Source: an uncultured Bacteroidales bacterium
GTDB lineage: Bacteria; Bacteroidota; Bacteroidia; Bacteroidales; B18-G4
Length of the DNA: 64,000 nt
Assembly (NCBI GenBank): GCA_964531985.1
Contig: CAZHFC010000009.1
Location: 15,160 to 79,159, forward strand
Reading direction: 5' to 3'
Each line of letters begins with the position of its first letter. The first letter of the stretch is position 1. The notes beneath the pieces were generated by a model, which did no database searches, had not been told where the DNA came from, and worked only from the letters and a program-made list of their open reading frames with translations. A program made the translations under genes and the position numbers. Shown here piece after piece: positions 20,501 to 50,919 of the stretch.

Positions 20501-21484
20501 GCTGCCAACAATGTATGAATAATTATTGTCGGAGTCGCCGCTGGCATAGGATGTGGGAACCTGGGCGGCATCCCCGACCAGCAGGACAAAAGTGAGGCCA
20601 TGCGTATTATAATAGTTGGCAATGTAACTTTTTATTTGTGCACTTCCGCCAATGCTTGCAACGTCGACCATTTCCACGGGCGTACCTGTTTGGATCCGCC
20701 AGTCGGCCAGCGGTTGCATGGCAGGCATAAAAGCGCCGTAGGAGATGATGAGCATGTTGCCATGCTCGCTCACGGGTGTATAGTCGGTGATATTTTGCAG
20801 GTTGTTCAGGAAATGACGCTCGTAAAAAGAAGCAAATTCAGCCGATATCTTTTCCGGCATCCGCTCCCTGACCAGTGGGTTCTCCCCTTCATCGTCAACC
20901 CTGAAGACTTCCAGTTCGAGGCGGTGATAAACCCTCAGGGTGCGTGTAACCGGGTTATACTGGAATGGATAGGCGATAACGGCCTGTCCGCGGTAATCCC
21001 TGATGATGTATGGTGTACGGAGCCCGGCAAGATCACCGGGATAAAATGCGTCACGTCCGTATTCCTCACCGAAGGTATAGGGAATACTGGCGGGATCAAT
21101 GTCGCGGGTCAGGTTCCCCTTTGAAGGAGCGAGCAGGATATTTTCATAATCGGTATAGGATGAATTAACAACCCGTACATCCATTCTGGCCATATCGGGG
21201 ATGAGCAGCGAACCGGTCATCTTTAATACATCCGGTGCACCGGCTTCCAGTAAGGGAGTGGCTTTTTTCAGATTTATGACATATGCGGGCCCTTCAGCCG
21301 TGGCTACTTCCGTCAGCTCAAATCCGGGAATATCGAAAACGAGCCTGTTTGAATGATGATCGGAGGCAAGCAGGGTCACCCCTGCAGGAACGGGATAACT
21401 GCTCGTGATTCCGGTCCATCCGCTGCTGTGTGAATAAAAGGCGGAGAACAGGATGATCAGCGATAGAATAATTGACTTTTTCAT
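17561..21484 (-). CDS. C25 (gingipain-family) cysteine peptidase, subfamily A1, T9SS cargo
   Basis: Signal peptide. Canonical gingipain contexts INYTGHGS (His444, 20153..20155) and WSVACVNGNF (Cys477, 20054..20056). CARDB-like doublet (18800..19492), module C (18380..18796), D (18119..18376), E (17843..18118). CTD: LWPNPGNGQFTF...GLYFLSV...KLIISH. Confidence 0.9.
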   Translation of the reverse strand: MKKSIILSLIILFSAFYSHSSGWTGITSSYPVPAGVTLLASDHHSNRLVFDIPGFELTEVATAEGPAYVINLKKATPLLEAGAPDVLKMTGSLLIPDMARMDVRVVNSSYTDYENILLAPSKGNLTRDIDPASIPYTFGEEYGRDAFYPGDLAGLRTPYIIRDYRGQAVIAYPFQYNPVTRTLRVYHRLELEVFRVDDEGENPLVRERMPEKISAEFASFYERHFLNNLQNITDYTPVSEHGNMLIISYGAFMPAMQPLADWRIQTGTPVEMVDVASIGGSAQIKSYIANYYNTHGLTFVLLVGDAAQVPTSYASGDSDNNYSYIVGSDHYPDLFIGRFSAENIQHVEIQVERTLTYEQNPDLDFDWFTRGIGIASSEGPGDDGEYDYQHIRNINDDLLDFTYTYCAELFDGSQGGNDAPGNPTPAMVATEVNTGSTIINYTGHGSTTSWSSSGFSNSHVNSLTNVGMWPFIWSVACVNGNFVNNTCFAEAWLRAEDNGSPTGAVATMMSTINQSWNPPMCGQDEMVDVLVETYPNNINRTFGAASMHGCMQMNDEYGSQGDEMTDTWVCFGDPSLHVRTAFPQTMTTSYMNTIFIGMNSLSVTANAEGGRACLTKDGQILATAFIQGGSAMLTFPELTEPCVLTLTITGFNFLPHIGQVNVVPGNTPFLVFEDDQVIDPNGNNNGFLDFGESVTYTVELFNLGGVDATDVEVTLSTSDPYITITDDYEFYGDIPAGQVVGIAGGFAMEVADDVPDEHPIAFTVTATDGDTTWVLEYENMAFAPVLNIAEMIIDDNTSGNGNGRLDPGETAIIKVKNFNSGHCPIDNSLGYLESDCHYLNIVNNTYNVGTLGLLGSKWAEFTVEVDPDAPDGSAIAHFNYELTAGQFIETATFSKKIGLVYEDWETSNFNKFNWVHGGDKPFQITGVYPYEGSFSAKSGSISDNQTSELKIDVEVMLPDSITFVYKVSSQSNKDKLKFYINNTLKDEWSGVGSPWIRVAYAVEPGNYTFKWVYQKDAGGMSGSDCAWLDFITFPAPLTLTCYAGPDDYSCNGESFQCQGEATDWVALEWTSSGDGAFDDPFILEPVYTPGSNDIASGNVILTLSAENAEGTVVDDELNLMVMLIPEAPETPAGPDYVNLNNVTSSEYTTEAVPYAEYYEWMVDPEEAGDISGIGTSGTINWNPAFLGTAAIFVRALNHCGEGSFSEGFEVTVDNFVSVAEHGQDHSLKLWPNPGNGQFTFMVSGIRAGQYSLRVYNLTGNMMAEQSGLSLYNNRPLDINFSHLPDGLYFLSVEGQGSRMVRKLIISH

Positions 21485-21629: not shown

Positions 21630-24600
21630 TCAGGGAATAAGGATGATCTTTTCGTTGAAGGCAAAACCGTTTCCGGAAAACTGCAGGAAATAGATACCCC
21701 GTGGCACTGAGCCCAGATGGATATGCTTTTTGTATGTTTCACCGGAAACTTTCACCGATTCCCGGTAGATTTGTTTGCCCGAAGCATGACAGATCTTCAG
21801 TTCAGCTTTATCCAGCCCGGGGGCCCATACTTCCAGGGTGAAGCTCCCCTTGCTGGGATTGGGATACAATGCCCTGCTGTAGATCTGGCCGGGATCGGCC
21901 GTAAACAAGCCGCCTTCATCAACCAGTATCTCAAATTCCGGGGAATACGGTCCGGCCCCGCAGCTGTCAACGGCCCTGGCAGAGACATAGGCAAGACCAT
22001 GGTATGAAGGTTCCCAGTTAACGGTACCTGTTGTTTCTGTACCTGTTATGGTGCCGGCTTCAAGCGGTTCGAGGTGCCATTCATAGGAAATGACCGAAGG
22101 GACCGGGGGAATGGTGTATTCCGAAGAAGTCACCGTTAGCAGGTCCACATAGTCCGGTCCGTCGGGAATATCCGGGGTGCCGGGATCCTCATCAATTTCG
22201 AGCAGCATGCTGTCGAAACTGGTTCCGGTCTGGTTAAAGGTGGCGGCCAGGCTGAGTTGTGCCATTCCGCCGGCTATATCTTCCGGACCGGGAGTGTAAA
22301 TGGTCTGCAATTGTTGCGGGTTGTCGAACATGCCGTCGCCTTCGGTCGACCACAACAGGCTGGTGTATCCTGCTGCCTGGCCCTGGAGCTGGCAGATGTT
22401 ACCGGCACAGATCAACTGGTCGGGGCCGGCATAGGCCGATGCGGTATTTACAAAGGGTAAAACAATATAATCGAGCCAGGCACAGTCATCACCCGAAGCG
22501 GAAGCAACATTCTTGATATACTCCCATTTGAAGAAGGTAACGCCCTGCTCAACGGCGAAGCTGAAATTCTCCCATCCTTCCTCTCCCGACCATTGGCCTT
22601 TTAATTCATTGTTGATGTAAAAGTTCAGGAAGTCGGAAGGCTCTGATGACACTTTCCTGTAAAAAGAAATGCTGTCGTCGTGCTGTACGTTAAGTGCAAG
22701 CTGAAGAACAGATTTTTCATTATCGCCGATATTTCCCGAACGTGCGCTGAATATGCCTTCAAAGGGTTCCACATCCATTGTTTCCCATCCGGCCTGCCCG
22801 GCCTGAACCCAGTTGAAACGGCTGAAATCACCCGTTTCCCAGTCCTCGCAGATAATCCCGTTTGGAACGTCGTATAATTGCTGGGCCTGGTAAGCTCCGG
22901 CTTCAATGGAGTGGGTCAGTTCAAATGTAGCGCCTCGTTGCGACAAAGGATGCGTCGACAGGGTATATACGGCCACGAAACTATCGCCGGCATCCAGTGA
23001 ATCAGCATAGGCGCTGCCGGAAATAATGCTGACGAGGGTATCGGTAACACCGATCTCCGCTGATATATTGCTGACCGGACTGTTGCCGCTATTGGTCACA
23101 ACTATGTGTATATCGGCTGTTTCACCCGGATCAAGGTATGCATTGCCATTGCCGTGCAGGCTGTCGTTAATGCTGAGGATTCCCGAGCTGAAGTCAGGGG
23201 CGCAGGCCATCAGAAAAAAGTTGCTTATCCATGTTTCCTGTCCTTCGGCCCTGACTGTAAACATTACTTCGTACCCGTTCGGAACATCATCACCCAGACT
23301 GAATTCATATCCTTCCCCGATCATGACCGCTTGCCCCGGGCCAATATTACCGTAGTACTCCACGCTGTCGTTGATGAGTACATAGGGATCGGCGGAAGTA
23401 AGGAATACAGTCACATCTGTGGCATCCTGCTGACCCATGTTGGTTACTTCCAGGCTAAGCTTCACGGTTTCCCCGTATTCGGGCAGCCCATTGCCATTGC
23501 CGGTAATGCTGTCGATCACGGCATGTGATTCATAGCATACAAAAGGCTGTTCTGCCACCACCACGATATGCCCGTGCAGGCGTTCCCTGTTATGGGCGAT
23601 GACAGAGACGCTGATGGTGTCGGTGTTTCCAAGCTGGGCAAACAGGTTTACCATCAGGTTACCGCTTGCATCGGCAAGACCGCGCCCGATCAGTTCTCCA
23701 TTTTGCATAAGCCCGATACGGGCTCCCGGAGCGTCGGTCTGGAAATAAATGCCGGAGGTCCCCAGGGGGACGGCTGCCGGGTACACAGCCACAATGGGAG
23801 CAGGAGCGGCAGTCCAGATGTCGAGGGTCGGATCCCCGAAAACATTCAGTATGTAACAGCACCATCGCAAGCCGTTGCTCCCCATGATGAATGCGGCCAG
23901 ATCTTCCTTGGAATCGGAGTTGGCTTCGCCGATCATGCTCAGCTCCTCACCAAAAATGGCATCAAAAAACTCCCGGTCGAAATACTGGGAAGGTCCGTTG
24001 GTATTCCCGGGTGAGTATAGTCCGTATCTTGAGTTGGCAACACAGGCAACCTCTGCCGTTTCGATGGTTGTTATCTTTTCGGCAAAACAATCGGCCCCGT
24101 ATGAATTAAAATTGGTACCCCTGTTGTCGAAGGCCCCGTTGTAGCATCCCTGGGAATATCCGATCACATAACCCCTGCTGATACCATCATTGGTAAAATT
24201 GGTGGTGGTAAGGTCGGATGTATACATCTTCATGTTGTAATTGGTATTGGAATGCCCCAGGTGGTTGAGCAGGTTGATCCCGGTATTGTTGAACTGGCTG
24301 TAAACATGGGTTTTGTTCCACCATCCATCCCTTTCATAAAGGTATTCGATATTGAAGTTGGCCGAAAGTCCGGCTGTGGTAATGCCATGATTGGCACTGC
24401 CAGTGGCAACTTCATCTTTTGAGTCTCCGCCCCAGGTGTACGAATCGAGTGATTCGCCGATCATCAGTGCCTTTTCAATGTCGTCAACCACGGGCTGATC
24501 CTGGTACATCATGAGTTTATGGGTGAAATGGGCTATTTCTGTGGAATCATCAACGGCGATCCTTCCAACGATGACCTCTGCAAAAAGGTCTTCCTCTCCC

Positions 24601-25619
24601 GGTTCACCCCAGCGCAGGTCCCCGTCGTCGTTCCATGTTCCGTCGAGGCATGCATAATACATATCGGCAGGGATGTCGTGGTCGTTATCGACAGTTCCGT
24701 AAAACCCGCGGTGGGGGACAAAGTTCTGCGAAGGATTGTTCTTGTCGGCGTCGCCCCCGAGTATAACGGCAAAAATATCATGATTATCGTAATAGTCAAT
24801 AATGCAGTTTCGTATCTTATCCTGTTCGTCGATGCCGCTGTACTGTGAATAGATGTCGCCGGTTGTCAGTGTTTTTACAATATAGCCTGTCCCGGTCTTG
24901 AAACTGATATAGGGCTCAAAATAAGGTTCAAGGTCTTCGTGTGTGATAAAAAGGATATCGTATTCGCCGGTTTTATTTTCTGTATAGGTATATTTCTCCA
25001 GCAGGGAAATATTGTCAACGATGCTGCCGATCCTTCTGACCTGCGAAGGATGGTTTTTAAGCATTTTTTTTGCCTGCCGGGCTTTGCCGGTGGTTTCCGT
25101 TACCACTTCAATGCTGATGCTTCGGATATGCCTGACCTGCGATGCGGCCGGGTTGTATACGAGCGGGCAAATGGTGAACATGCCGATCGAATGTCCCGCC
25201 AGGAAATGCGTTTCGCCCGTACTGCAAATACCGGCCGGATAATTATTAGCAGACTGGTATATGGCTGCATCGGGCACCGGCTTATAGCCATCGGGGGCCC
25301 CTTTTGATATAGGAAAATAACCGGGGGCGGGACGGATGTCAACATTGTTATATGTTAGCCCGTATTCAACCGAAATGACTTTGATCTCCCGGAGGGAATG
25401 CCCCGGCGGAAGCAAGAGGTGGGCGGCGTAGTACGGAAGCATTGGCGTTCCTTCTTCCCCCAGGTTATAACATTCGGGGATCAGAAATTCGGTATATCCA
25501 TCTTCGGAATTTTTTACAACGGGCGTTCCAAAATCATAGGTCATCACGACCTGTGCATGGATGATAATGGTTACAAACAGCAATAATGCTGAAAAGAGCA
25601 GCTTTTTTGTATTGAGCAT
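21630..25619 (-). CDS. C25-like cysteine peptidase, subfamily A2, T9SS cargo
   Basis: Signal peptide. LGGDADKN...IPADMYYACLDGTWNDDGD...VGRIAV. Candidate His456 in LNHLGHSN (24252..24254) and Cys492 in SQGCYNG (24144..24146). CARDB-like doublet (22866..23546), module C (22452..22859), D (22191..22448), E (21915..22190). CTD: LYPNPSKGSFTL...GIYFLQF...KIILIP. Confidence 0.8.
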   Translation of the reverse strand: MLNTKKLLFSALLLFVTIIIHAQVVMTYDFGTPVVKNSEDGYTEFLIPECYNLGEEGTPMLPYYAAHLLLPPGHSLREIKVISVEYGLTYNNVDIRPAPGYFPISKGAPDGYKPVPDAAIYQSANNYPAGICSTGETHFLAGHSIGMFTICPLVYNPAASQVRHIRSISIEVVTETTGKARQAKKMLKNHPSQVRRIGSIVDNISLLEKYTYTENKTGEYDILFITHEDLEPYFEPYISFKTGTGYIVKTLTTGDIYSQYSGIDEQDKIRNCIIDYYDNHDIFAVILGGDADKNNPSQNFVPHRGFYGTVDNDHDIPADMYYACLDGTWNDDGDLRWGEPGEEDLFAEVIVGRIAVDDSTEIAHFTHKLMMYQDQPVVDDIEKALMIGESLDSYTWGGDSKDEVATGSANHGITTAGLSANFNIEYLYERDGWWNKTHVYSQFNNTGINLLNHLGHSNTNYNMKMYTSDLTTTNFTNDGISRGYVIGYSQGCYNGAFDNRGTNFNSYGADCFAEKITTIETAEVACVANSRYGLYSPGNTNGPSQYFDREFFDAIFGEELSMIGEANSDSKEDLAAFIMGSNGLRWCCYILNVFGDPTLDIWTAAPAPIVAVYPAAVPLGTSGIYFQTDAPGARIGLMQNGELIGRGLADASGNLMVNLFAQLGNTDTISVSVIAHNRERLHGHIVVVAEQPFVCYESHAVIDSITGNGNGLPEYGETVKLSLEVTNMGQQDATDVTVFLTSADPYVLINDSVEYYGNIGPGQAVMIGEGYEFSLGDDVPNGYEVMFTVRAEGQETWISNFFLMACAPDFSSGILSINDSLHGNGNAYLDPGETADIHIVVTNSGNSPVSNISAEIGVTDTLVSIISGSAYADSLDAGDSFVAVYTLSTHPLSQRGATFELTHSIEAGAYQAQQLYDVPNGIICEDWETGDFSRFNWVQAGQAGWETMDVEPFEGIFSARSGNIGDNEKSVLQLALNVQHDDSISFYRKVSSEPSDFLNFYINNELKGQWSGEEGWENFSFAVEQGVTFFKWEYIKNVASASGDDCAWLDYIVLPFVNTASAYAGPDQLICAGNICQLQGQAAGYTSLLWSTEGDGMFDNPQQLQTIYTPGPEDIAGGMAQLSLAATFNQTGTSFDSMLLEIDEDPGTPDIPDGPDYVDLLTVTSSEYTIPPVPSVISYEWHLEPLEAGTITGTETTGTVNWEPSYHGLAYVSARAVDSCGAGPYSPEFEILVDEGGLFTADPGQIYSRALYPNPSKGSFTLEVWAPGLDKAELKICHASGKQIYRESVKVSGETYKKHIHLGSVPRGIYFLQFSGNGFAFNEKIILIP

Positions 25620-25875: not shown

Positions 25876-26475
25876 TTAGAATTTCAGGGTTGCGCCAATG
25901 GTGAAGATCGATACGTTCCAGCCCAGTTCAGCAAAGGCGGCGAATGCGGGTGTGAAGAACCATCTTGCTCCTACATAGGCGCCGCCATGGAAACCACCTG
26001 TCTTACCACTGTATCTGGGCAGATTGGCAGCATACCCAGCGTCATAATCCACTTTATGACTCCCGAAATAATATCCTAACAGGATACCGGCATAAGGATC
26101 GAATTGATCATGAAATATAAAATGATAATTTCCCCTGGCCGCCACGATGAAGTATGTGGTTCTTACAGAGTAACCATATCCGGATAAAAAATAAGAGTAA
26201 TCGTATTTGGAACCGCCAAATCCTACGAGGCCGCCGGCGCTGACCACTCCCTTGAAGCTGCTTCCCATTGGCACTTCAACAATGCCAAGCTCATAGGAGG
26301 CCGAAATGGTGGGGAAGCCTATTTTGTAAAAGGCTCCCGTGTAAACCGTGTTCCCGATGCCGATACCCAAATTGATGGCGGAACTGCCTTTCCCGAATAC
26401 ATCGCCGGGAGCCTGGCTTTTTGCCGTGAGGAATGTCAGGCTGATCGCGGCAAGAATTAACAATGTCTTTTTCAT
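25876..26475 (-). CDS. Small outer-membrane beta-barrel (porin-family) protein
   Basis: The internal Met at 26475 gives signal peptide MKKTLLILAAISLTFLTAKSQA. The body is Gly/Tyr/aromatic-rich with an alternating strand pattern, and the protein ends in Phe (GATLKF). It has its own downstream terminator. Confidence 0.7.
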   Translation of the reverse strand: MKKTLLILAAISLTFLTAKSQAPGDVFGKGSSAINLGIGIGNTVYTGAFYKIGFPTISASYELGIVEVPMGSSFKGVVSAGGLVGFGGSKYDYSYFLSGYGYSVRTTYFIVAARGNYHFIFHDQFDPYAGILLGYYFGSHKVDYDAGYAANLPRYSGKTGGFHGGAYVGARWFFTPAFAAFAELGWNVSIFTIGATLKF

Positions 26476-26563
26476 ATCACAAGAATTTAAGGTTTTAAAA
26501 ATAGGTTTTCTGATACAAAGATACATCATTTCACGGTCTTTTAAAAGGGATTGCCGGAAAGAA

Positions 26564-26613: not shown

Positions 26614-29600
26614 TTATTTGCGGATAATGATCCGGCTTGAATGGGTTCCCAGTTTGCTTTCCACGTTCATCAAATAAATACCCTCGGCTTCTCCTTCCAG
26701 GTTGATGGTCGTGCTGAAATTACCGTTCACTTCCACATCCTGTTTTTCAAAAATTACGTGACCGATGGCATTCATGATGCGCAGGTTCACCATGTCAACT
26801 ACTTCGGTGGCAATTTCAACGGTAAAGCTGCCTTTGTTTGGATTCGGGTAAACGGCAAGGCCCAGCGCACGGGCAAGTTCGTCGATACCGAATGAATTTT
26901 CGAGTGTGACCAGCAGCTGATCTGAGAAATTGCCTTCTCCGCAATCGTTGATGCCCCTTACCCGGATGGCTGCTTCGCCGGTAAAGGGATAAGCCCATGT
27001 TACGGTACATTCCGTCTCATCCGCTGTCATTTCGGTATAGGCACCGGCAGGTGTGATCTCCCAAAGGTATTGATCGGCATACATTGCCCCGTCGGTGCTG
27101 AACACCGAAACGGGTTCCTCATCCGTATTGACGATCGCCGGCCCGGCAGGAACGGCAGCAGTTTCGGGTACCGGCATAATGTCGACCTGGGCCGATCCGG
27201 TTCCTGCATTCAGGCAACCGCTGTCGTCCTGCACAGATGTTATGGTATAGGTCGTGCTGTTGGCAGGGGAAACATTGAATGTCCAGGGTGAGCTTTCAGC
27301 AGTGTATGCTTCATTGTTGATGACCAGCGACCAGGGAGCCAGACCGGTTAGATCAACACTGAGCGTGACTTCTTCTCCGGCACATATTATTGCCGCGCCT
27401 GAGATGGTTGCGGTGGGCGCCTCCATCACCTCCACGTGGAGGGTGTCGGAAACCGGCCCGATGCCCGTATTGTTCATTCCGCAAACGTTAACGGATGCCC
27501 ATCCGTTAAAGTCTGCTGACCATGAGATGGTGATGGCAGTATCGGTTCCGTTTACCGTACCGGCGTATTCTGGATAGATGGTCCAGTAATAGAAATCGGC
27601 ACCTTCAACGGAATTCGTGGTATAGGGAACTCCGCCGGCACCCTGGCAGACCAGGTCGTTGCCGTCAGGAATTGCCGGTGCCAGGGTAACTTTCCTGATG
27701 CCGAAGAATTCAAGGTATTCCTCCATCAGTTTCAGTTTGGTGGAGATTCCGCCCCCGTCTGCCAGCCCGCCGAATTCAAATGATGTACCGATGGTGCGGT
27801 AGTCACCTGCATTGTATGCAACTCCGGCATAGTAGGCCGGGTTTTGATTGGCAAAGATGTTGAATGCCGGCGCGATGGCATTGATCTGGTCCATATAGTT
27901 GTTATCACCGCCATAGCTGAATGTCATCCCTTCGGTAAATGTCCCTGATTGTCCCTGCAGGGTGCCCATGTCGCCGGATCCGTCTGCTACGGGGTTAATG
28001 TTGAACATGCTGTGTACGGCTGTGGGTGAATCATAATACCAGGTGTCGCCACCCTCCATATAGAGGTTGCCCCCGTTGTTGAGGTAGTCGGCCAGTAGCT
28101 GTCCCTGGCCGGCAGTGAGTACATGGTTGCGGCTGTATATGCCAAGGCAAACAAACACATTGGCATAAAGATCAAGCTGATCGGGCCAGGTACTGGTGTA
28201 GTCAACGCCTATGCCAAGGTTTTGAATGGCCGTAAACATATGCGGACCGGAGTTTTTGGGTACACCGTCGAGGTCGAGGATCAGGATGGGCATTTGCCCG
28301 ACGGTGAGGCTGAATGCGCCTTGTGCGGAAACCCCTCCGTTGGCCGACATATCAAAGGTGAAGTCGAGCTGGTAGCCTGCCGGGGTGATAATGTCGGTGG
28401 TAATGCTGAAGCCCTGCGATCCGTCAGTTCCGGCTGCCACATCCCCGTATGCCTGTGATGAAGTGTTTATGGTGAGGTACGGGTCGGCGCAAAGCAGGTC
28501 GCCAATTACCTCGTAGGCATCTGCCGTACCGGTATTCCCGAGTGATATGACAAGGTTGGCCGTTTCGCCGGGATCAAGCCTGCCATTGCCATTCCCTGCG
28601 GCATCATCGATGATCACATCAACAAAGCCCAGATTGGGGGCATGGCCCTTCAGGTAGAAGGAACTTTGCCAGATTTCAGTGCCATCGGTGGCTTCCACGC
28701 TGAAGACAACGGTGTGAAGGTCGGGAATGTCACCGGCAACGTCGAAGGCAAAGGCATCGTCAATTGATTTGTTCTGCCCGGCAGGGACGGTTCCGTAACT
28801 GGCCTGGGTCGTTGTCATGGTGATATAGGGATCGTCGGTATCGACGGTAACTTCCACGTTTTCTCCATCATCGCTGCCAACGTTCTTTACTTCAAGTGTG
28901 AGCAGGATGGATTCACCATAGTCCATCAGTCCGTTCCCGTTTCCGGCAGCGTCATTGATTATTACACTGTTCTGGACAATGTACGGACCGTCGGGCGGGA
29001 TCACCTGTACCTGTGCATGGTAACGGTAATAATTGGTTTTGGTTATCACCACATCGACCATGGTTGGCGGCATTTGGGGTGCGATGGAGATATTGACAGG
29101 GCTGCCCGTTGCAGTTCCGGTTCCGATGATCTCCCCGTCAACGCTCAGCGCAACAAAAGCCCCGTCGTTGGCGGTAATGGTAAACTGGTCCAGCCCGGCC
29201 AGGATTACATTGTCGTGGACTACGGTCAGGTCGGCAGGCACTTCCGAATACAGGGTGCTGAAAGCACAGCCGTGGTGGTGAAAGAGGAAATAAGTCACTT
29301 CTTTGTTGGACGTGTTGTAAGGCCAGCTCGACTGCTGCAGGAAGTATTTCCCTGCCGAATTCCCGAAGGCCGGCAAGAGGCCGCGCGGCATGGGTTCGGT
29401 CTGGTAGTCGGGCATAAAATCAGGCCACATATTGTCGAATAACCCCCATACATAGGTGTCGTTCACAAAGGAATATGATACTTCCGAAGCGGCGATGACC
29501 CCCAGTGCCCCGGCATTCTGGCCATTATAGGTATGCCTGTGGAATTTTTCCGTAAAGCATTCGCCCGACCAGTTGAATTTTCCGGTGAGGCAGTTGATGG

Positions 29601-31152
29601 AAAAGATAAAACAAAGATCCTCATTGGTGAGGCTGTTGATGTTGTTGTTCGAATAGTCGGGTTCACCCCATCCGGTTTCACCGCCATGGTCGCGGTGTTG
29701 AAGCATGAAAGCCCCGTCGTTGATGGCATTGGTTACCATGCTGGAGTTACCGCCGGTCCAGCCGCCCAGTTCTGCAGGAGTTTCGGGGATATATCCCTGG
29801 CCTGCGGGTCCGAAATAGTTAACAACAGTGGTAGTGTTTGTTGCGGTTGACCATACCGATCCCGGGGTTCCTGAATAAATGGCGTTGATGCGTACGGGGT
29901 CTTTCCCGTGCACATGCTTGAAATAGCCACCCACGGTTTCGGAACAAATCTGGAACCACCTTTCGGTTTGCCAGCCCAGGGCCGTGATCGGGTGATTGTA
30001 AAAATCGGGATTGGTGGGGGGATCTGTTTCGTGGTTGATCACCTTCGTGATCATGGTTTCAAGATGTGTTTCGTTCTGGGCCGTCATCCTGGCAAAGACT
30101 ATATCAGGCATGGAATTGCCACTGACGTCGGCATAGATGTTGTCAGAAACGCAATAGCTGTCCCAGATCGGCGAAACCACCGTATTCCCGCTGGTCCCAT
30201 GATCGCCGAGCAGCAGCACGGCAACAGGGGGAACGCTCCAGTTGGCAAAAGCGTCGTCAATGAAACTTTCGATGGCTGCGGTGGTGTTGCCGCCCAGTTC
30301 GGTTGTGGTGATCACACCTGTATGTATTCCTTGCTGGTTGCGGAAAAGCGCAAGCTCTTCGGCCCAGGAAATAAATGTTGCATCGTCGGGGCAGATGATC
30401 ACATATTCATAATCGGGTGTGCCCGATTCGGGTGCGTGTTTCGGATAGTTCACTTTGGGGAGGCTTGCAAAGTTGATCATCCTGTCGCTAAGGATGGGGT
30501 CAAACCAGCGGCTGCGAAGCCGGTCCTCACCGAAAGTCCCGTTCCCGCCTTCGAAGGCGACTTCGATAACCAGGTCGCGGTAAACGATCAGTTCTTTGGT
30601 AACGGGATTATACTGGAAGGGCGTAATCCCCAGGATCACGCTTTCCATCCCGCGAATGTTGGTTGGTTCCGACAGGCTGACGGGTTCTGCGGGGTAAAAG
30701 GCGTCGCGTGCATATATTTTTTGGTTTTTGGCGTAATGAAGGGGGCCGTCGTCGGTCACTTTCGGTATCCTCGGTGCAGGGGCGATGTTTACATCCTGGT
30801 AAATTTCTTTCCGCATGGCCGTAATAGTATAAGTAACGGAAGCCCCGTTGGGGATGGCAATAAAACGGCCGTCGCCGGGAAGGTTGGGTGCCCCTTCATT
30901 GTTGGGCAGAAAGTTGCCCGGCATATGAATCTCCTTCATGGCCTCGCCCCTGAGATCAAAATCGGTCAGGGCAAACTCATCAAGTGAAAAAATAAGTTCA
31001 AGGCCGTTGGTCGACGACCGGGTAAGGTTAAATCCCCTGTTTGCCCATGCATCGTCAAATGCAAATTTCTGGGCATGGATGCCATTCATGGCCAGAACAA
31101 GCATCAGTGCTGTGCAAAATGCCATCAGGCGATGTTGTAAACTTGTTTTCAT
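26614..31152 (-). CDS. C25-like cysteine peptidase, subfamily B, T9SS cargo (1512 aa)
   Basis: Signal peptide and a propeptide-like N-terminus (GFNLTRSS..LELIFSLDEF...EGAPNLPGDGRFIAIP). Candidate His489 in QHRDHG (29686..29688) and Cys521 in SINCLTGKFNW (29590..29592). CARDB-like doublet (28297..28989), module F (27700..28293), module E x2 (27421..27684, 26896..27171) flanking an Ig-like domain. CTD: VYPNPNKGSFTV...GIYLMNV...RIIIRK. Confidence 0.85.
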   Translation of the reverse strand: MKTSLQHRLMAFCTALMLVLAMNGIHAQKFAFDDAWANRGFNLTRSSTNGLELIFSLDEFALTDFDLRGEAMKEIHMPGNFLPNNEGAPNLPGDGRFIAIPNGASVTYTITAMRKEIYQDVNIAPAPRIPKVTDDGPLHYAKNQKIYARDAFYPAEPVSLSEPTNIRGMESVILGITPFQYNPVTKELIVYRDLVIEVAFEGGNGTFGEDRLRSRWFDPILSDRMINFASLPKVNYPKHAPESGTPDYEYVIICPDDATFISWAEELALFRNQQGIHTGVITTTELGGNTTAAIESFIDDAFANWSVPPVAVLLLGDHGTSGNTVVSPIWDSYCVSDNIYADVSGNSMPDIVFARMTAQNETHLETMITKVINHETDPPTNPDFYNHPITALGWQTERWFQICSETVGGYFKHVHGKDPVRINAIYSGTPGSVWSTATNTTTVVNYFGPAGQGYIPETPAELGGWTGGNSSMVTNAINDGAFMLQHRDHGGETGWGEPDYSNNNINSLTNEDLCFIFSINCLTGKFNWSGECFTEKFHRHTYNGQNAGALGVIAASEVSYSFVNDTYVWGLFDNMWPDFMPDYQTEPMPRGLLPAFGNSAGKYFLQQSSWPYNTSNKEVTYFLFHHHGCAFSTLYSEVPADLTVVHDNVILAGLDQFTITANDGAFVALSVDGEIIGTGTATGSPVNISIAPQMPPTMVDVVITKTNYYRYHAQVQVIPPDGPYIVQNSVIINDAAGNGNGLMDYGESILLTLEVKNVGSDDGENVEVTVDTDDPYITMTTTQASYGTVPAGQNKSIDDAFAFDVAGDIPDLHTVVFSVEATDGTEIWQSSFYLKGHAPNLGFVDVIIDDAAGNGNGRLDPGETANLVISLGNTGTADAYEVIGDLLCADPYLTINTSSQAYGDVAAGTDGSQGFSITTDIITPAGYQLDFTFDMSANGGVSAQGAFSLTVGQMPILILDLDGVPKNSGPHMFTAIQNLGIGVDYTSTWPDQLDLYANVFVCLGIYSRNHVLTAGQGQLLADYLNNGGNLYMEGGDTWYYDSPTAVHSMFNINPVADGSGDMGTLQGQSGTFTEGMTFSYGGDNNYMDQINAIAPAFNIFANQNPAYYAGVAYNAGDYRTIGTSFEFGGLADGGGISTKLKLMEEYLEFFGIRKVTLAPAIPDGNDLVCQGAGGVPYTTNSVEGADFYYWTIYPEYAGTVNGTDTAITISWSADFNGWASVNVCGMNNTGIGPVSDTLHVEVMEAPTATISGAAIICAGEEVTLSVDLTGLAPWSLVINNEAYTAESSPWTFNVSPANSTTYTITSVQDDSGCLNAGTGSAQVDIMPVPETAAVPAGPAIVNTDEEPVSVFSTDGAMYADQYLWEITPAGAYTEMTADETECTVTWAYPFTGEAAIRVRGINDCGEGNFSDQLLVTLENSFGIDELARALGLAVYPNPNKGSFTVEIATEVVDMVNLRIMNAIGHVIFEKQDVEVNGNFSTTINLEGEAEGIYLMNVESKLGTHSSRIIIRK

Positions 31153-31260: not shown

Positions 31261-34200
31261 TCAGTAGATCACGAGCTTACTGCTTGCCTGTCCGGAACCG
31301 CTGATGATCCGGCACAGGTAAACCCCCGGGCTCAGGCCCGCAACATCAATCCTGATAGCATGCCTGCCGCGCGGGAATGTATTATCATATGAATTTGTCA
31401 TAAGCGCCCGGCCCTTCAGATCCAGGATTTCGATGTTTATACGCGAAGCCTCACCAAGGGAAAATTCAATATAGGTCGCTTCCGTGGCAGGGTTTGGCCT
31501 GATCATCAATTCAGGGCCGTTTGATTTTTCATTGTCATAAACACCTGTTGAAATGTCGATAGGCGGGAATACGATGTAGTCAACCCATGCGCAGTCTTCT
31601 CCACTCGAAAGATAACTGTCTTTTTCATATTTCCAGCTAAAGGTTTGAAGTCCCTGCGATACCGGGAAGCTGACCATCTCCCAGTCAAGTTCTCCTGACC
31701 ATTCTCCCACCAGGCTGTTGTCAATATAGAACCGCAGGAAATCCCATTCTGTTTCGGACGAAAGTTTCCTGTAGAAAGAAAGGTCGCCGGCAGCCAGTAC
31801 TTCAGCCGTGAGATAGAATTCCGACGATTGGTTATCGCCGATTTCACCTGAACGTACACAATAAATGCCTTCATAGGGCTCCACGGTACAGATCGTCCAG
31901 GGTGCATTGCCTGAAAATTGCCAGTTAAAGGTGCCGAAACCGCCACTTTCCCAGTCTTCCACCATCATTCCCACAGTTGTGGTATATTCTTCCGTATCAG
32001 TGTAAACGCCTGATTCCACGTTGAAGTCAAAAACGACCGTGGTTCCGTACGGGGTGTTTTCGTCCACACTGAGCTCAAATTCTGCAAAGGCATTGACCCA
32101 CGGAATGAGTGTATTGAGCGCATAAGAAGTGTTGACCAGGTTTATCCAGCTATTGCCGGTGTTCAGGTTTGCCACCGTGCCGGGAGCATCGCTGTGTCCT
32201 GTATTCATTACGGCGATCCGCAGTATGGCCGTTTCGCCGGGGTCAAGGAAGCCGTCGCCGTTGCCATTGGCAATATCATCAATGGTCATCAGGCCGGCAT
32301 CCAGCACGGGCGCGTTCAGGATAATACTGAAAGCGCCGTTCCAGTTTTCCTTCCCTTCTCCAGAGATACTCAGGCTGAAATCAACTACGTGCTGGTCGGG
32401 AACATAATCGGCCACATCAAAGGCATAATCGTTGGTGGTTCCGGCAAGCGTTCCCGCTGCCACGGTCCCGTAGATGCCAAAGTCATCGGTTATGGTAATA
32501 TACTGATCGCTGCTGCTCAGTTGGGCTGTCACATTGGTGGCATCGGCCGTGCCGGCATTGGCCAGCAGGACGGTCATCAGGATGGATTCCCCGTAATCGG
32601 CCAGGTTGTTGGCATTCCCGCCGGCCGTGTCGTCAAGGATATGGTCATGATAGATCATGAATGCGCCGGCGGCCGGACTTACAACGATGTTATAGGATGT
32701 GGTAAGGCAGTTATAACCGCTGATTGTCAGTTTGGCGGTACCAACGGTGCTGATGGGCGGATCGATGATGATGGTGGCTTCGCCATTGGCATCGGTAATA
32801 CCGGTGCCGTGCAGGATCCCGTCTTTGGTGAGGGCGCACATCATCCCTTCTACCGGTGTTCCTGAACTGTATACCGTAACATCCATGGTCCCGGCCCCGA
32901 CCATGATAGGAGCCTGGAAAACGGCATTAACCGCAAAGGGCTCATCCGTCCATACCTGTAGCACAGGGTCTCCCAGTATGTTGATGTCGTAAAAATTCCA
33001 CCTGAGCGCTCCTTCTTCATGCTGCCCGGGGGCCGTTACCCAGGGTGCGGTCTGTATTTTGCATTCAACAAAGGCGGCGCCGATACGGCCAATCTCCTCT
33101 TCATACATGGCATCCACCATTTCACGGTGCAAATGCGCAGCAGGCCCTTCTGTCTGTCCTTCATTGAACCATCCATACCTTGAATTCCCGATCACCGCGA
33201 CAGCGAAATTATCGATGAACAACATATGCTCCATGATGCAGTCGGAATAATCAAATGCCCCGCAAATACACCCATGGCTGTGGACAAAAGTGTAATTGTG
33301 CGTTACGCCGTTTACCTGCGAAAAGTTGGCATTCGTAATGTCGCCGATGTTCAGGTGCATTACCGTATAGGCATTGGCGTGACCGCAATGGTGTATAAAG
33401 GATTTTCCATTGTTGATCTCGGCTATGATGCTGCTTCCTCCCCAGCTTTGATAACGCTCATAAAGGGTGTCGATATCATGTTCGGGAGGTATCCCGATGG
33501 TTGTGTAGCCATTGTCGTCGCGGTAACCAACCAGCAGCCGGAGGTAATCGGAACCCCATGTGAGCGGGTTGTTCCAGAGGTGTTCACCGGCGAGCAAAGG
33601 ATTGGTAAATTCACCTAAAACAGGGCTGTTTTGGTATGCAATGGTCTTGTTGAGCATGGCATTTAATTCGGTAGTATTGGAAAAGGTATACCGCCCGATG
33701 GCCACTTCGGGAAAGAGGTCGTCTTCGCCAATCTCGCCCCAGAGGTTATTGCCATTGTCGTTCCAGGTTCCGTCAAGTGCCGAATAGTAAAGGTCGGCCG
33801 GGATATTGTTGTCCGAATAGCCCGCCCCTGATTGCACGTAGCAGTAAAAACCCCGGTAGGGGACATGTTCCACATCCCCTCCCAGGAGAACATATTCGAT
33901 ATTGTTGTTCTGGTACTCCTGAATGATATAGTTCCTGATCTTTTCCTGCAGGTCCTGTCCGCTCATGAGGGTGCTGATATCTTCCGTGCTGGCAATTTCT
34001 GAACGGATGCCGCGATCAAGGTATAAGGCACAAAGGTTTTCAAAATTCCCTTCAAAAGCCTGGGGCGTGATGATCAGCAATTGATAATCATCATTGCGTG
34101 TTTTTCGCACAGGATATCGGCCGGTCATCTCTGGATTATCGACAAAACTTTCCAGTTTTTGCCGCAGTGCGGGCGCTCCCCCGATCATCGAAAGGGCATT

Positions 34201-34728
34201 TTCTGAATCCTCCCCCGGGCCGGTGATGAGGCTTACAGTGATCTCCCTGTAAAATGCGAGCCTGCCTTTTGCCGGTTCATAAACCAGCGGACAAATATGC
34301 AGCAGGGCAATGCCGTGCCCGTTCATATATTGTGTGCTGATGCTGCCGGAGGCCTCTGCCGGGTAAGGCCCGGAACTTTCGTAAACTGCTTCGTTTATGA
34401 TGAAATTTCCTGAAACACCATGGGAGAGCGGACGCGATGCCTGTTGTGGATAAATGCTGTACTGACCGGGAATTTCTGTTTTTCCCTTGAGTGATATGGT
34501 ATAGGACAATGCCTCTTCGCCAGGCGGCAGCAGTAGTTTTACGGCATACCACGGCATCGAGGGATCACCGGCAGGCCCTGTGTTCATGCAGCCTTCAAAG
34601 CGGATAAGCTGAAATTCGCCGGCTTCTTCAATGCTGTAATGATCAAAGGTATATATTTTGGTCACCTCACTGGCATAAACCGTGGATATGACCAGAAACG
34701 TCAATAAAATAGTTAGTAGCTTTTTCAT
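31261..34728 (-). CDS. C25-like cysteine peptidase, subfamily A2, T9SS cargo
   Basis: Signal peptide. LLGGDVEHVPYRGFY...IPADLYYSALDGTWNDNGN...IGRYTF. Candidate His450 in HHCGHAN (33379..33381) and Cys487 in HSHGCICG (33268..33270). CARDB-like doublet (31975..32673), module C (31561..31971). CTD: IRPNPATEATYI...GVYLCRI...KLVIY. Confidence 0.8.
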   Translation of the reverse strand: MKKLLTILLTFLVISTVYASEVTKIYTFDHYSIEEAGEFQLIRFEGCMNTGPAGDPSMPWYAVKLLLPPGEEALSYTISLKGKTEIPGQYSIYPQQASRPLSHGVSGNFIINEAVYESSGPYPAEASGSISTQYMNGHGIALLHICPLVYEPAKGRLAFYREITVSLITGPGEDSENALSMIGGAPALRQKLESFVDNPEMTGRYPVRKTRNDDYQLLIITPQAFEGNFENLCALYLDRGIRSEIASTEDISTLMSGQDLQEKIRNYIIQEYQNNNIEYVLLGGDVEHVPYRGFYCYVQSGAGYSDNNIPADLYYSALDGTWNDNGNNLWGEIGEDDLFPEVAIGRYTFSNTTELNAMLNKTIAYQNSPVLGEFTNPLLAGEHLWNNPLTWGSDYLRLLVGYRDDNGYTTIGIPPEHDIDTLYERYQSWGGSSIIAEINNGKSFIHHCGHANAYTVMHLNIGDITNANFSQVNGVTHNYTFVHSHGCICGAFDYSDCIMEHMLFIDNFAVAVIGNSRYGWFNEGQTEGPAAHLHREMVDAMYEEEIGRIGAAFVECKIQTAPWVTAPGQHEEGALRWNFYDINILGDPVLQVWTDEPFAVNAVFQAPIMVGAGTMDVTVYSSGTPVEGMMCALTKDGILHGTGITDANGEATIIIDPPISTVGTAKLTISGYNCLTTSYNIVVSPAAGAFMIYHDHILDDTAGGNANNLADYGESILMTVLLANAGTADATNVTAQLSSSDQYITITDDFGIYGTVAAGTLAGTTNDYAFDVADYVPDQHVVDFSLSISGEGKENWNGAFSIILNAPVLDAGLMTIDDIANGNGDGFLDPGETAILRIAVMNTGHSDAPGTVANLNTGNSWINLVNTSYALNTLIPWVNAFAEFELSVDENTPYGTTVVFDFNVESGVYTDTEEYTTTVGMMVEDWESGGFGTFNWQFSGNAPWTICTVEPYEGIYCVRSGEIGDNQSSEFYLTAEVLAAGDLSFYRKLSSETEWDFLRFYIDNSLVGEWSGELDWEMVSFPVSQGLQTFSWKYEKDSYLSSGEDCAWVDYIVFPPIDISTGVYDNEKSNGPELMIRPNPATEATYIEFSLGEASRINIEILDLKGRALMTNSYDNTFPRGRHAIRIDVAGLSPGVYLCRIISGSGQASSKLVIY

Positions 34729-34945: not shown

Positions 34946-37900
34946 TTAATGAAGCTGATCGCTAATGATTATTTGTTTGCTCAACCTTCCCTTGTCCGAT
35001 TCGATGATGAGCGTATAAACACCCCTGCTGAGCTGCGACAGGTTAAAGGTTTGTGAGTATTGCTTATGAATAAGAATGTTTTGTGATTGTTGCAGCAAAA
35101 CCCCCAGTTTACCGGCGAGGTAGATATTCGCCGTGAATTCCCTGTCGGTATTGATTTCGAGGGTAAAGACTCCCTGGCTGGGATTCGGGTATACCGATAC
35201 CCGGAACGAAAGTTCGTTTTCGTCCTGGCCTGTCGTGTTCACAACCATGACCTCCAGGCTGTCGGACCAGGGGCTTTCCCCGCAAATGTTTGCGATCATC
35301 ACTTTTAAGCTGGCACTTCCGGTAAAGGTGGTATCCCAGGCGATGGTCATTTCCCTGCCATTGTTTTCCATGATGCCTGCCTCGGCCGGATCAAGCTGCC
35401 ATTCATAATAGAGAATGTCGCTGTAATTGCCGGTGGCGTATTCGCTGATATTGCCGTTATACAGGTCGACGAGCCCGGGACCTGCCGGTTTGGCCGGTTG
35501 CGGGGCCAGCGGGTAAACAGAAAGGATCAGCGTGTCGCGGCTTTTACAACCGTATTCATTGCTTACCTCCACCCAGTAGGTGCCCGCTTCGCCGGCGGTG
35601 AAGCTTTGCCCGTCTGAACCATCCTGCCAGAGGTAGGATGCATATCCTTCACCGGCATCAAATACGGTGGATGTCCCCTGACAAATGGTGGTGTCGGGTC
35701 CAAGGCTGACAACGGGAAGGTCGTATACGGTCACATCAACCTGCTCATTTGCTGAATTGGTCCCATCGGTCACGGCAATGAAATAGGTAGTGTTTTCCTG
35801 TGGAATGACATAAGGGTTTTGAAGCGTTGATGTGAAGCCCGGCGGATCGGAAGTCCAGGAATAAACATAACTGCCCAGGCCGCCGAAAACCTGGGACTGA
35901 AGCTGGGTGCTTTCACCCAAACATATTTCCGGAGGGTTGGCTGCGGCTGTTACGCCGAATTCACTCACCAGCATGGTTACCGGTACTGTGAACTGGGGCA
36001 GGTCTGGGTCATTGCTGTTTACCACCAATTCTGCCTGATATTCTCCCAGTTCCATGCCGGTGGCGTCGAAAGTAACTTCGGCCTGCAGGCTGTTGCCCGG
36101 CATAAGGTTGCCAAGCTTGGGATCAACTGTCAGCCAGGTGATCACGTTAACGCTGTAGTCTTCCACTTCACCATAGGTGGTGGTTCCACAGGGCTCGGGC
36201 GTTCCGTAGTACTGTATCCTGATGCGCATGCGGGTGGTTCCTCCAACGGCATTGTCGGGGGCTGTGATGCTGGCTGTAAAAACATCCGGTCCCCCGCTGA
36301 CACTGATGGGATCATCATCACTGAAATCCTGGTTCTGGTTCCAGTCGATCCATATCCCGCAAACGTCACCTGTCCAGGTATTGCCGTTTGTGACGGTAAT
36401 CGGAATGGTTTCTCCGATCGAAATACTGGTGCTCAGGTCAGTAAAATCCTGATAACCCCCGCATGAAGAAGCATTGTAAATATCACCGAATTCAACGCTG
36501 CCGATGTACTCGTCGCAGCCACCCGATGCTTCGCAGTAATCTTTGCTGGCACCATCATCCGTCAGGATGAAGGTGGAAATGCTGTAATGCAGTTCCAGTT
36601 CACCCGTATTGGTAATGTTCAGGTATTTGACAGCGGTATGATCGGGTTGAAGTACCTGTGTCAGTTGGTTCGGCGCAACAAAGATGTGCGGGTTGCCCCA
36701 CTGCAGGCTTTTCGAAGCAGGAGTGGATTCTCCGTCGGGCTCGTAATAGGCGGTGACCTTATACTGATAAACACCATAATCGGGCAGCTGGTCGGTATAA
36801 TTTTGATCGGCCGGCTGTGCAATGACTACATTTTCCCTGTACAGGATGAAGTTTGAAAAACCGGGGGCGGGATCGTACTGCCATTCCAGTTCAACGGTTC
36901 CCGTTTCCTCATCGAGATCGGCTGTCAGGTCATAGGGGCGCGACAAATTGTTCGTTACGTAAGGGGAAACATAGGTCATGGATGTTCCCGTCCGGTTATC
37001 GGTCCAGCATGGATAAACGTAAGAATCGCGGGCGCTGATGCCAAGATAGTCGCCCATGTAGCCCATGGCAAGTCCGGGGATGGGGGTGGGTGTGAAGGAA
37101 ACGTCGCTTACCTTGAAGTCTTCCCAGGTTTCCCCACCATCGAAGGAGTTGGCACAGAATACTTCGCACTGGTTCCCCCCCACATTACGGTCATCGTAGA
37201 AGACTACGCTCAGGGTTCCCGTAATCGGATCGCAGGTGATCCAGGGGAAGTAATGCTGGTGTCCCAGCCCCGCTTCGTCCTGGTTTACCCTGACGGGGCT
37301 GCTCCAGGTATCGCCCTGGTCTTCGGAGCGGATCATGTATACGTCTATGTCGTTGCCGGTATTTATACCGGGCACGCCAATATTGGCCCAAACAACGTAA
37401 AGGTTACCGTGATATGCTCCGCCACTCACATCAACCGCCAGCACGGGAAAGGAATTAACACGCATGTTTTTGGAGGTTTCCGAAAAGCGGATGCCACGAA
37501 TGTTTTCAATGATGCGGGTGGCAGGCTGCCAGCTTGCACCTCCGTCAAGTGATTTTGCCAGGCCGTGCGCGTTTTCATCGCTGCTGCCGTCGTATATGGC
37601 AAATACAGCGTACACTTCGCCGTTGGGGCCGGTATTGATGTTTACTCCCTGGCAATGGCTGCCGGCATTTACGGCAGCGCTGATGTTCTGTGCATTCGAC
37701 CAGCTCAGGCCCTGGTCCGATGAATATGAAAGCGCAATATCGTAATTATGGGGACCGCCAAAATCAGTCCAGGCGCAATACAGGTTTCCCTCGTAAGGAC
37801 TCAGGAGGTGGTTGTCGATCCAGAAGTGGTTCTTGTCAAGCACATAGGCAGAGACCCCGTTATCGATGATGACGGTATTCCAGGTGTTACCCTGGTCAGT

Positions 37901-38440: not shown

Positions 38441-38510
38441 GAAAGTGTTTTTGGTTTCAGGATGCGTGTAATGAAGTATTGTTACAACAAAGACATTCAA
38501 TGTTGATAAA

Positions 38511-50900: not shown

Positions 50901-50919
50901 TTTTCATCATTTTTATCAT
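47914..50919 (-). CDS. M14 family zinc carboxypeptidase with long C-terminal extension, T9SS cargo
   Basis: Signal peptide. Zinc motif FFDGGIHGDE (HxxE, 50425..50436), then VNPDGRE and TTYHSG. CarboxypepD_reg-like domain (GTITDAVTGEPIQATIFVN, ~49585..49818), an unassigned beta-rich segment (49150..49584), one CARDB-like domain, module F (48226..48819). CTD: CWPNPFGDHVSF...GLYIYVL...KIMMAQ. Confidence 0.85.
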   Translation of the reverse strand: MIKMMKNIIVLLTAVFMLLSFSIQAQAWRPGEMEVRVEIPDQQTARTIAGLKLNGDYAAGHAILYIIPREAEMLDRAGIDYKIQIHDLNEHYKDFWESKTAYHSYQEIVDLADSLVSAFPDICMKVMYGTSLQGRELAALKISDNVSVDENEAEVFFDGGIHGDEIGAAENCIRFARDLCVKYGSDPDVTYLVDNREIWIYYMVNPDGRENMSRYNAAGVDLNRDYGYMWDAWGGSTGAFSQVETKSLRNCCYENQFVVHTTYHSGIEYISCPWSYRPEPPPDDSHILQLAGVYSSVSGYANLEYGQGNTGMYAINGSTKDGNYGASGSISWSMEISEDKQPPVSQLMQYYNWNYPSMMAMIEYAGYGLEGTITDAVTGEPIQATIFVNDYMQCFSDSAVGDYHKYVLPGKYSIRVVANGYETQMTTDSVLVSELSSTLTDFQMVPAENPRWYAWRLISCHIPGNNTLDEGNTLALIGPPDGINYSIGKNGWVVVDMQKPVKDMPGNDIKVYEGDLSAEGFSIFAGQGMDGPWIFMGNGEGSTEFELSVTGLSEARYFKIVDDGDGPQNAGDAGFDLDAISDLEHNWGVFILVYDYILDDENGNGHLEQGESADLIVTLGNNGNVTANNTVATLSTASPYITITQATANYGTLQQNQSGEGTFSFEVDDATPTGDTIDFIIDVTANNGIYNTSFELSFIVGKYPILIIDLDGNQNSGTIMQTVISDLDITAFYETSFPDNLGMYQCIFVCLGVYNNNHVLSGAEGDKLAAYLNHGGRLYMEGGDTWFYDPATAVHEMFKIQGVSDGNGDLGLVFGQNGSFAEGLVYQYGGDNNYIDRIAPTDNAFQLFRNQVPSYCNAVALDEGTYKTVGCSFEFGGLNDGQHTREELMILILEFFGGVLTGIGEIPETSQDINVQCWPNPFGDHVSFRFILEKSSNVKLNIYRADGKIIKNLANQTMPAGIHQLDWDGTSDQGYRMPDGLYIYVLEAGQSGFTGKIMMAQ

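Follow-up and report, generated by a model that had tools for sequence, protein, structure and literature searches.

Class I glutamine amidotransferases such as HisH, PabA and the N-terminal domain of GuaA (clan Glutaminase_I) are built on a domain of about 200 residues, in which the loops after strands 1, 3, 4 and the last strand together form the glutamine site. Peptidase families C26, C56 and S51 have the same fold. Relatives that lack the triad are also described: accessory domains of glycosidases (domain B of GH42 enzymes, and the equivalent domains of Op5Man5 and IaSGT), which have a role in oligomerisation, as well as the accessory domains STM3548 and 3rht; the enzymes that contain these domains are larger and either secreted or cytoplasmic. 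The GIFT domains of IFT52 (N-terminal), OST48/Wbp1 and GldG, found in intraflagellar transport, oligosaccharyltransferase and gliding ABC transporters respectively, are likewise non-catalytic, and a role in sugar binding or as a docking platform has been proposed for them (PMC7226087). Here a module is described which is predicted to adopt this fold and which is carried by secreted peptidases. It is present in four copies, numbered 1 to 4, within 64,000 nt of DNA from an uncultured Bacteroidales bacterium (GenBank assembly GCA_964531985.1, contig CAZHFC010000009.1, positions 15,160 to 79,159), and this whole stretch is referred to below as the window.

Each copy is a collinear stretch of approximately 198 aa within a long open reading frame (ORF) (Table 1). 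The hosts are otherwise different: two are C25 peptidases, one is an M14 carboxypeptidase, and the fourth, an ORF cut by the left edge of the window, has no catalytic Pfam match in its visible part. Copies 2, 3 and 4 are 46, 55 and 36 % identical to copy 1, respectively, and 44 columns are invariant in the alignment of the four. The most distant pairs are still recovered by BLASTP at E=7e-38 and E=7e-44. A hidden Markov model (HMM) of the four copies, run against the six-frame translation of the whole window, returned these four only (E 1e-99 to 1e-105); no further copy was found by this HMM in the window, whether in the five other C25 paralogues or in other type IX secretion system (T9SS) cargo. 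A preliminary description of the window had proposed that four different proteins have one collinear segment in common and had listed its conserved motif blocks. Alignment and HMM agree on the position of all four segments, and every one of the listed blocks is found in the alignment. An artefact of chance, composition or recent duplication, with no real domain behind the resemblance, was considered and rejected; given pairwise E-values of 7e-38 or better, copies that have already diverged to 36-55 % identity, hundreds of homologues and a confident fold prediction, its probability is negligible.

AlphaFold2, supplied with a 26-sequence alignment, modelled copy 1 at a predicted local distance difference test (pLDDT) score of 96.8 and a predicted template modelling (pTM) score of 0.93. 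The model runs through strand 1 (residues 3-7), helix 1 (16-25), strand 2 (30-33), strand 3 (45-49), helix 2 (61-72) and strand 4 (76-80) into a C-terminal half that is mostly beta, and ends in a closing helix (186-197). Foldseek comparison of this model with the PDB gave 48 matches at E<=1e-3, all of which have the class I glutamine-amidotransferase-like fold, at 7-17 % identity. Amidotransferase subunits of about 200 aa (2a9v, 4gud, 2wjz and 7ac8) match over their full length, and under either normalisation the template modelling (TM) score is about 0.6. The highest TM score, 0.71, is to the GIFT domain of IFT52 (5fmr_C), with 5fms and OST48 (6s7t_G) also matched. The top E-values, 2e-6 and weaker, belong to the accessory domains of the glycosidases (GH42, 4ucf; Op5Man5, 7bob; IaSGT, 7vkz), STM3548 (2gk3) and 3rht, at 8-16 % identity. 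Judged from the model, the module is an autonomous domain of about 198 aa with a three-layer alpha/beta, class I glutamine-amidotransferase-like (GATase1-like) fold. Its autonomy is supported independently of the model because stand-alone proteins exist in nature, among them one that consists of a signal peptide and the module (P0081, 254 aa), one in which a dockerin follows these two (P0087) and one of 312 aa encoded on an 893-kb contig (P0019). The preliminary description had called an alpha/beta domain and had likened it to class I glutamine amidotransferases; the confident autonomous fold and the Foldseek matches, respectively, bear out the two proposals.

Several of these top structural matches (4ucf, 7bob, 7vkz, 5fmr and 6s7t_G) are domains of oligomerisation or docking, and this raises the possibility that the module is a scaffold, assembling peptidases into trimers or higher oligomers as in GH42 enzymes and Op5Man5, or docking them on partners as in IFT52 and OST48. 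Proteins with two or three module copies exist, which would be in keeping with such a role. However, stand-alone secreted copies exist as well, and the strongest conservation is seen in polar and aromatic residues of the crevice loops (E80, W85, T167 and E173, treated below), not in a hydrophobic surface patch. A scaffold is therefore regarded as possible but doubtful.

At the level of sequence the module could not be placed in any described family. The four isolated modules, compared at E<=10 with Pfam-A (2025 copy) and NCBIfam (2026), returned noise only, and searches of PDB sequences with profiles of 4 and of 26 sequences gave chance matches only (SSB at E ~0.04, glutaredoxin at E 1.6). Likewise, the Pfam models for ThuA-like domains (PF06283), GH42M and ABC_transp_aux/GIFT had no match at E<=10 in the four copies or in the 26 members, so that the resemblance to these families is one of structure only. 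The sole Pfam family with any signal is DUF4159 (PF13709), an uncharacterised GATase1-like family, to which one of the 26 members scored 19.9 bits, below the gathering cutoff of 25.9. Residues 148-195 of this protein (P0074), covering strand 3, a helix and strand 4 ('L..YL..GG.LY.EGGD'), align to positions 43-87 of DUF4159, so that only a quarter of the DUF4159 model is matched; the four window copies have no match to it at E<=10. Family members carry generic names in their source databases (hypothetical protein, T9SS type A sorting domain protein), and searches of the literature on DUF4159, on T9SS cargo with a glutamine amidotransferase and on GATase1-like domains with a peptidase turned up no account of the module. 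The module thus stays outside the described families, as was first supposed, with DUF4159 as a match below threshold. The fold itself is not new. Neither the sequence family nor the Y-x-E-G-x-x-x-W elbow that it conserves, nor its regular attachment to peptidases, is described in the libraries and papers searched.

Conservation was computed over 175 aligned full-length instances of the module. Strand 4 and the segment E80-G81-G82-D83 behind it contain Y78 (96 %), E80 (99 %) and G81 (100 %), followed by W85 (99 %). The loop that precedes the C-terminal helix reads T167 (98 %)-x-G-x-S171 (92 %)-F-E173 (94 %), and D9 (92 %) and S15 (87 %) follow strand 1. G51 is conserved at 100 %, and no column of His, Lys or Arg among the 175 domains exceeds 74 %. 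For comparison, HisH, with about 200 aa, carries Cys84 and His178 (PMC10729027). Because no His is conserved, the family has no Cys-His-Glu triad and, as far as sequence can tell, is not a class I glutamine amidotransferase enzyme.

The likeness to amidotransferases had at first been argued from a 'C-L-G elbow', and this argument did not survive. In the copy 1 model CLG ends strand 3, which by strand order, and given matches that are collinear over the full length, is presumably the position of the S-G-G-P motif in true amidotransferases, and the invariant Gly that follows strand 3 in the module would correspond to the glycine of that motif. The Cys is therefore not on the nucleophile strand. 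Additionally, C49 is only 80 % conserved, being otherwise F, S, T or N (Thr in copy 2), while the Gly is invariant. CLG as the nucleophile elbow was ruled out on these two grounds. Equivalence by strand order to HisH and GuaA, which is good to within about 2 residues, would instead place E80-G81 at the nucleophile elbow, where amidotransferases carry their catalytic Cys, and T167-x-G-x-S-F-E173 in the loop near the C-terminus that bears the amidotransferase His and Glu. The same four loops that make up the catalytic crevice of the amidotransferases would then carry the polar and aromatic residues conserved most strongly in the module, although the chemistry would not be the same.

A further group of residues (D83, D88, D104, D108, N131 and D135), each conserved at 85-95 %, is lost as a block: no more than two of the six remain in 8 of the 175 domains, where 0.1 would be expected if losses were independent. 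Both subtypes are present in the window, with copies 1 and 3 on one side and copies 2 and 4 on the other (Table 1), and copies 2 and 4 still keep D9, S15, Y78, E80, W85, Y165, T167 and E173. The set includes D-G-x-G-D and G-x-N-x-x-x-D motifs that are suggestive of Ca2+. This pattern suggests that the acidic residues make up a separable accessory site, probably for Ca2+, which would be dispensable for the core function.

As to that core function, the module may best be read as a non-catalytic ligand-binding domain, acting as an exosite or anchor through the canonical crevice; this reading is tentatively preferred, at a little less than an even chance. The ligand would be bound in the crevice that the parallel sheet has at its C-terminal edge, lined by the loops after strand 1 (D9, S15), strand 3 (G51, N56), strand 4 (Y78, E80, G81, W85) and the final strand (T167, S171, E173). 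A crevice of such acidic and aromatic character could accommodate a glycan or a cationic peptide group, i.e. an N-terminus or a Lys or Arg side chain, and binding would hold the peptidase on a substrate particle or on the cell envelope. In favour of this reading, the GIFT domains, which are closest in structure, have a proposed role in sugar binding (PMC7226087). Several points weigh against this reading. The clustering of the conserved residues in a single crevice depends on the topology of the predicted fold. In enzymes of the GH42 type the equivalent domain has a role in oligomerisation instead of binding a ligand, and for GIFT domains the binding of sugars is itself a proposal. The near-invariant Glu at or adjoining the nucleophile-elbow position is also what would be expected of a cryptic enzyme. 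The bias towards peptidase partners may come in part from the protein-degrading lifestyle of the hosts, and the loss of the acidic block is confounded by phylogeny and may reflect just two or three lineages.

The cryptic enzyme in question would be a hydrolase or amidase of GATase1 fold with a carboxylate site (E80 with E173, Y78 or T167) in place of the Cys-His-Glu triad, acting on peptidase products or on modified residues. E80 (99 %) and G81 (100 %) lie at or adjoin the elbow, a short helical turn follows the elbow strand in the model of copy 2, and E173 is in the loop that carries the His and Glu of amidotransferases. Likewise, all identified partners are peptidases, and a gamma-glutamyl peptidase (9k7i) is among the fold matches in Foldseek. 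However, no Cys, Ser-His pair or metal-binding His is conserved across the 175 domains, E173 (94 %), D9 (92 %) and S15 (87 %) are not invariant, no known enzyme family is matched by sequence, and the closest structural relatives are non-catalytic. Such an enzyme is accordingly thought unlikely. A related proposal, held with considerable doubt, is that a site has been re-invented on the amidotransferase scaffold as a Glu-centred crevice (Y78, E80, W85, T167 and E173), which would be either catalytic or an exosite for peptide termini. The catalytic variant of this joint proposal, to which the same considerable doubt attaches, would perform a reaction that complements proteolysis, e.g. that of an amidase, isopeptidase or deamidase.

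Beyond the window, 1.84 billion cluster representatives (50 % identity clusters), searched exhaustively with a profile, gave 2236 matches at E<=1e-3, of which 1363 remain at E<=1e-10 and 764 at E<=1e-30. All 247 of the 247 proteins retrieved contain the module by a stricter HMM built from the window only, 17 of them in two or three copies. Multi-copy members (P0104-P0118) are 1100-2200 aa in length; P0105 and P0108 have three copies, and in P0104 two modules stand together with an S8 domain, a NIDO domain and a dockerin. A Pfam scan found a peptidase domain in 45 of the 63 long members, namely Peptidase_C25 (22), Peptidase_S8 (12), Peptidase_M14 (6), Peptidase_M6 (4) and Peptidase_M4 (1), in agreement with the earlier suggestion of an accessory domain of secreted proteases. 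Anchors in the same 63 proteins are Por_Secre_tail (32), FlgD_ig (13) and dockerin (8). Malectin, FG-GAP, MAM and NIDO domains are occasional partners; glycoside hydrolases are absent from the families listed for the long members.

The module is mobile. Among the 78 modules found on C25, S8 or M14 proteins are 28 whose nearest neighbour among modules is attached to another catalytic family, which is near random expectation, and module identity between C25 and S8 proteins reaches 73 %. Within the window, the module of C25 host 1 shares 55 % identity with that of the M14 host and less, 46 %, with the one in C25 host 2. These comparisons indicate that modules are exchanged freely between peptidase families. 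Fusion to at least five unrelated families of peptidases, and shuffling among them, suggest that the module has an accessory function of a general kind in protein degradation outside the cell, possibly in a role comparable to that of PA or PPC domains.

In domain order, the module appears C-terminal to the catalytic head, usually without a linker after a CARDB-like sandwich, and just before the anchor. It directly precedes the sorting domain in copies 2, 3 and 4 and in 42 of 144 representatives, and this placement would suit a passive spacer, or a T9SS export or attachment module that does no more than offer the C-terminal sorting domain to the secretion apparatus. However, the distance from the module to the C-terminus exceeds 300 aa in 55 of the 144 representatives and in copy 1, where PKD-like modules follow. 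Additionally, dockerins take the terminal place in 8 of the 63 long members, metagenome-assembled genomes (MAGs) of Acidobacteriota have stand-alone as well as dockerin-bearing forms, and invariant polar residues would not be kept by a spacer. A spacer or export role is thus considered very improbable. The same dockerin-bearing and stand-alone forms in Acidobacteriota rule out a T9SS-specific module, and members in Ignavibacteria, Cloacimonadota and Acidobacteriota likewise contradict the initial view of a module confined to T9SS proteins or to Bacteroidota.

The sandwich that precedes each of the four copies in the window carries a GNGNGRLDPGE motif or a variant of it (Table 1). The domain upstream of copy 2, joined to the module by a two-residue linker, scores 21.2 bits against Pfam CARDB (E=3.4e-4; cutoff 22.7). 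AlphaFold2 modelled sandwich and module of C25 host 2 together at pLDDT 90.6 and pTM 0.81; a strand of the sandwich (residues 101-110) runs into a strand of the module (113-119), and the module fold in copy 2 is unchanged. The model suggests that sandwich and module form a rigid two-domain unit, for which no precedent was found in the PDB (TMq<=0.43). Across the family, a GNGNGxLDPGE-type motif is fixed at 99-104 aa upstream of the module in 55 of 136 instances by a strict pattern, against 2 of 239 background windows. Instances missed by this pattern mostly have a degenerate motif, and a few have a PKD, fn3 or M6 domain in its place. The proposed rule that the module always follows a CARDB-like domain and precedes either a particular further module or the C-terminal sorting domain therefore holds for all four window copies, but family-wide this arrangement is the commonest one and not universal.

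Pattern scans of one genome per GTDB species confirmed 390 and at least 554 loci. All of the loci listed (163/163) come from MAGs, with lineages that comprise uncultured Bacteroidales, Lentimicrobiaceae, Ignavibacteria, Chlorobiota, Cloacimonadota and Acidobacteriota (Holophagae and Thermoanaerobaculales); candidate division WOR-3 also appears as a name among the protein matches. Several MAG names point to samples from anaerobic reactors, digesters or sediments. Closest among the loci listed is CAYOLA010000044.1, a 52-kb contig of the uncultured Bacteroidales MAG SRP067234_co1_51, with 97 % identity to copy 1. It has two module copies about 20.5 kb apart, a spacing like that of window copies 1 and 3. 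Its synteny with the window is therefore probable, and it may represent the same or a sister population.

By their C-terminal sorting domains the host proteins are assigned to T9SS cargo, the left-edge ORF being borderline. In the two C25 hosts Por_Secre_tail scores 45.1 and 35.1 bits, in the M14 host FlgD_ig has a score of 41.6 bits, and the left-edge ORF reaches 25.0 bits (cutoff 27 in each case). The approximately 500-600 visible N-terminal residues of the left-edge ORF, taken from positions 2-1519 (+), have no Pfam match at E<=0.1. It is clearly a multidomain secreted protein, and a functional or catalytic head may lie off the window.

C25 hosts 1 and 2 belong to an array of seven tandem C25 (gingipain-family) paralogues at 13526-47719 (-); propeptide, C25 Ig-like domain and T9SS sorting domain are present in every one. 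Just 2 of the 7 carry the module, and the remaining five have PKD-like or CARDB-like modules. The array is interrupted by two genes for non-peptidase T9SS cargo, one product being BNR/sortilin-like with GEVED and BACON-like domains and the other an Omp28 and PKD protein. Between two of the C25 genes lies a 217-aa ORF with no Pfam match at E<=1e-3. An unusual richness in peptidases beyond the C25 array (S8, M14, M20 and M23; Table 1) suggests a proteolytic specialist.

Table 1. Positions of the four module copies, their upstream sandwiches, host proteins and neighbouring genes in the window
Feature	Position	Strand	Remarks
Module copy 1 (W1)	27700-28293	-	aa 954-1151 of C25 peptidase ORF 26614-31152; canonical type, acidic set 6/6
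Module copy 2 (W2)	44282-44881	-	In C25 peptidase ORF 43973-47719; acidic set 1/6; EGRRTW vs EGGDTW
Module copy 3 (W3)	48226-48819	-	In M14 carboxypeptidase ORF 47914-50919; canonical type, acidic set 6/6
Module copy 4 (W4)	1862-2452	+	In left-edge ORF 2-2773; most divergent copy, acidic set 0/6
CARDB-like sandwich before copy 1	28294-28641	-	GNGNGRLDPGE motif
CARDB-like sandwich before copy 2	44882-45214	-	GNGNGRLDPGE motif
CARDB-like sandwich before copy 3	48820-49113	-	GNGHLEQGES motif
CARDB-like sandwich before copy 4	1520-1861	+	DGILDPGET motif
Host 1 (C25 paralogue)	26614-31152	-	propeptide_C25, Peptidase_C25, C25 Ig-like, two CARDB-like domains, module, PKD_6-like modules, Por_Secre_tail
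Host 2 (C25 paralogue)	43973-47719	-	C25 peptidase (propeptide, C25 Ig-like), CARDB-like domain, module, sorting domain
Host 3 (M14 carboxypeptidase)	47914-50919	-	CarboxypepD_reg, beta-domains, module, FlgD_ig-type sorting domain
Host 4 (left-edge ORF)	2-2773	+	N-terminally truncated at window edge; CARDB-like domain, module, sorting domain
C25 paralogue	13526-17500	-	
C25 paralogue	17561-21484	-	
C25 paralogue	21630-25619	-	
C25 paralogue	31261-34728	-	
C25 paralogue	40098-43883	-	
S8 subtilase	2959-4956	+	
M23 peptidase	4959-6215	-	
M20 peptidase	54190-55635	+	
217-aa ORF	25876-26529	-	Between two C25 genes
Non-peptidase T9SS cargo	34946-38500	-	Interrupts C25 array
Non-peptidase T9SS cargo	38610-40076	-	Interrupts C25 array

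The family is large, with 764 clusters at E<=1e-30 and no fewer than 554 loci confirmed in species-representative genomes, yet it has no Pfam or NCBIfam model and no sequence match in the PDB. Its presence marks peptidases located outside the cell in Bacteroidales, Ignavibacteria, Cloacimonadota and Acidobacteriota, and a family model would improve the annotation of thousands of large multidomain proteins. If the module were an exosite for peptide termini, it would represent a new and widely distributed class of 'protease-associated' domain in uncultured anaerobes. The natural variants with and without the acidic set in this one window offer a ready experimental contrast.

Compared with known systems, the module has the fold, the strand order and the length of about 200 residues in common with class I amidotransferases, from which it differs in being extracellular and peptidase-fused, at an identity of 7-17 %. 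It resembles the GIFT domains, which give the best TM score, in being GATase1-like and apparently non-catalytic; however, there is no detectable sequence similarity to them, and none of the GIFT domains is known to be fused to a peptidase. The accessory domains of glycosidases likewise lack the triad, but their partners are glycosidases, whereas all identified catalytic partners of the module are peptidases. PA, PPC (pre-peptidase C-terminal) and P-domains are non-catalytic modules that are recurrently fused to unrelated families of secreted peptidases. Although their Pfam models do not match the module, and their folds and sequences are unrelated to it, the role of these domains would be analogous to that of the module.

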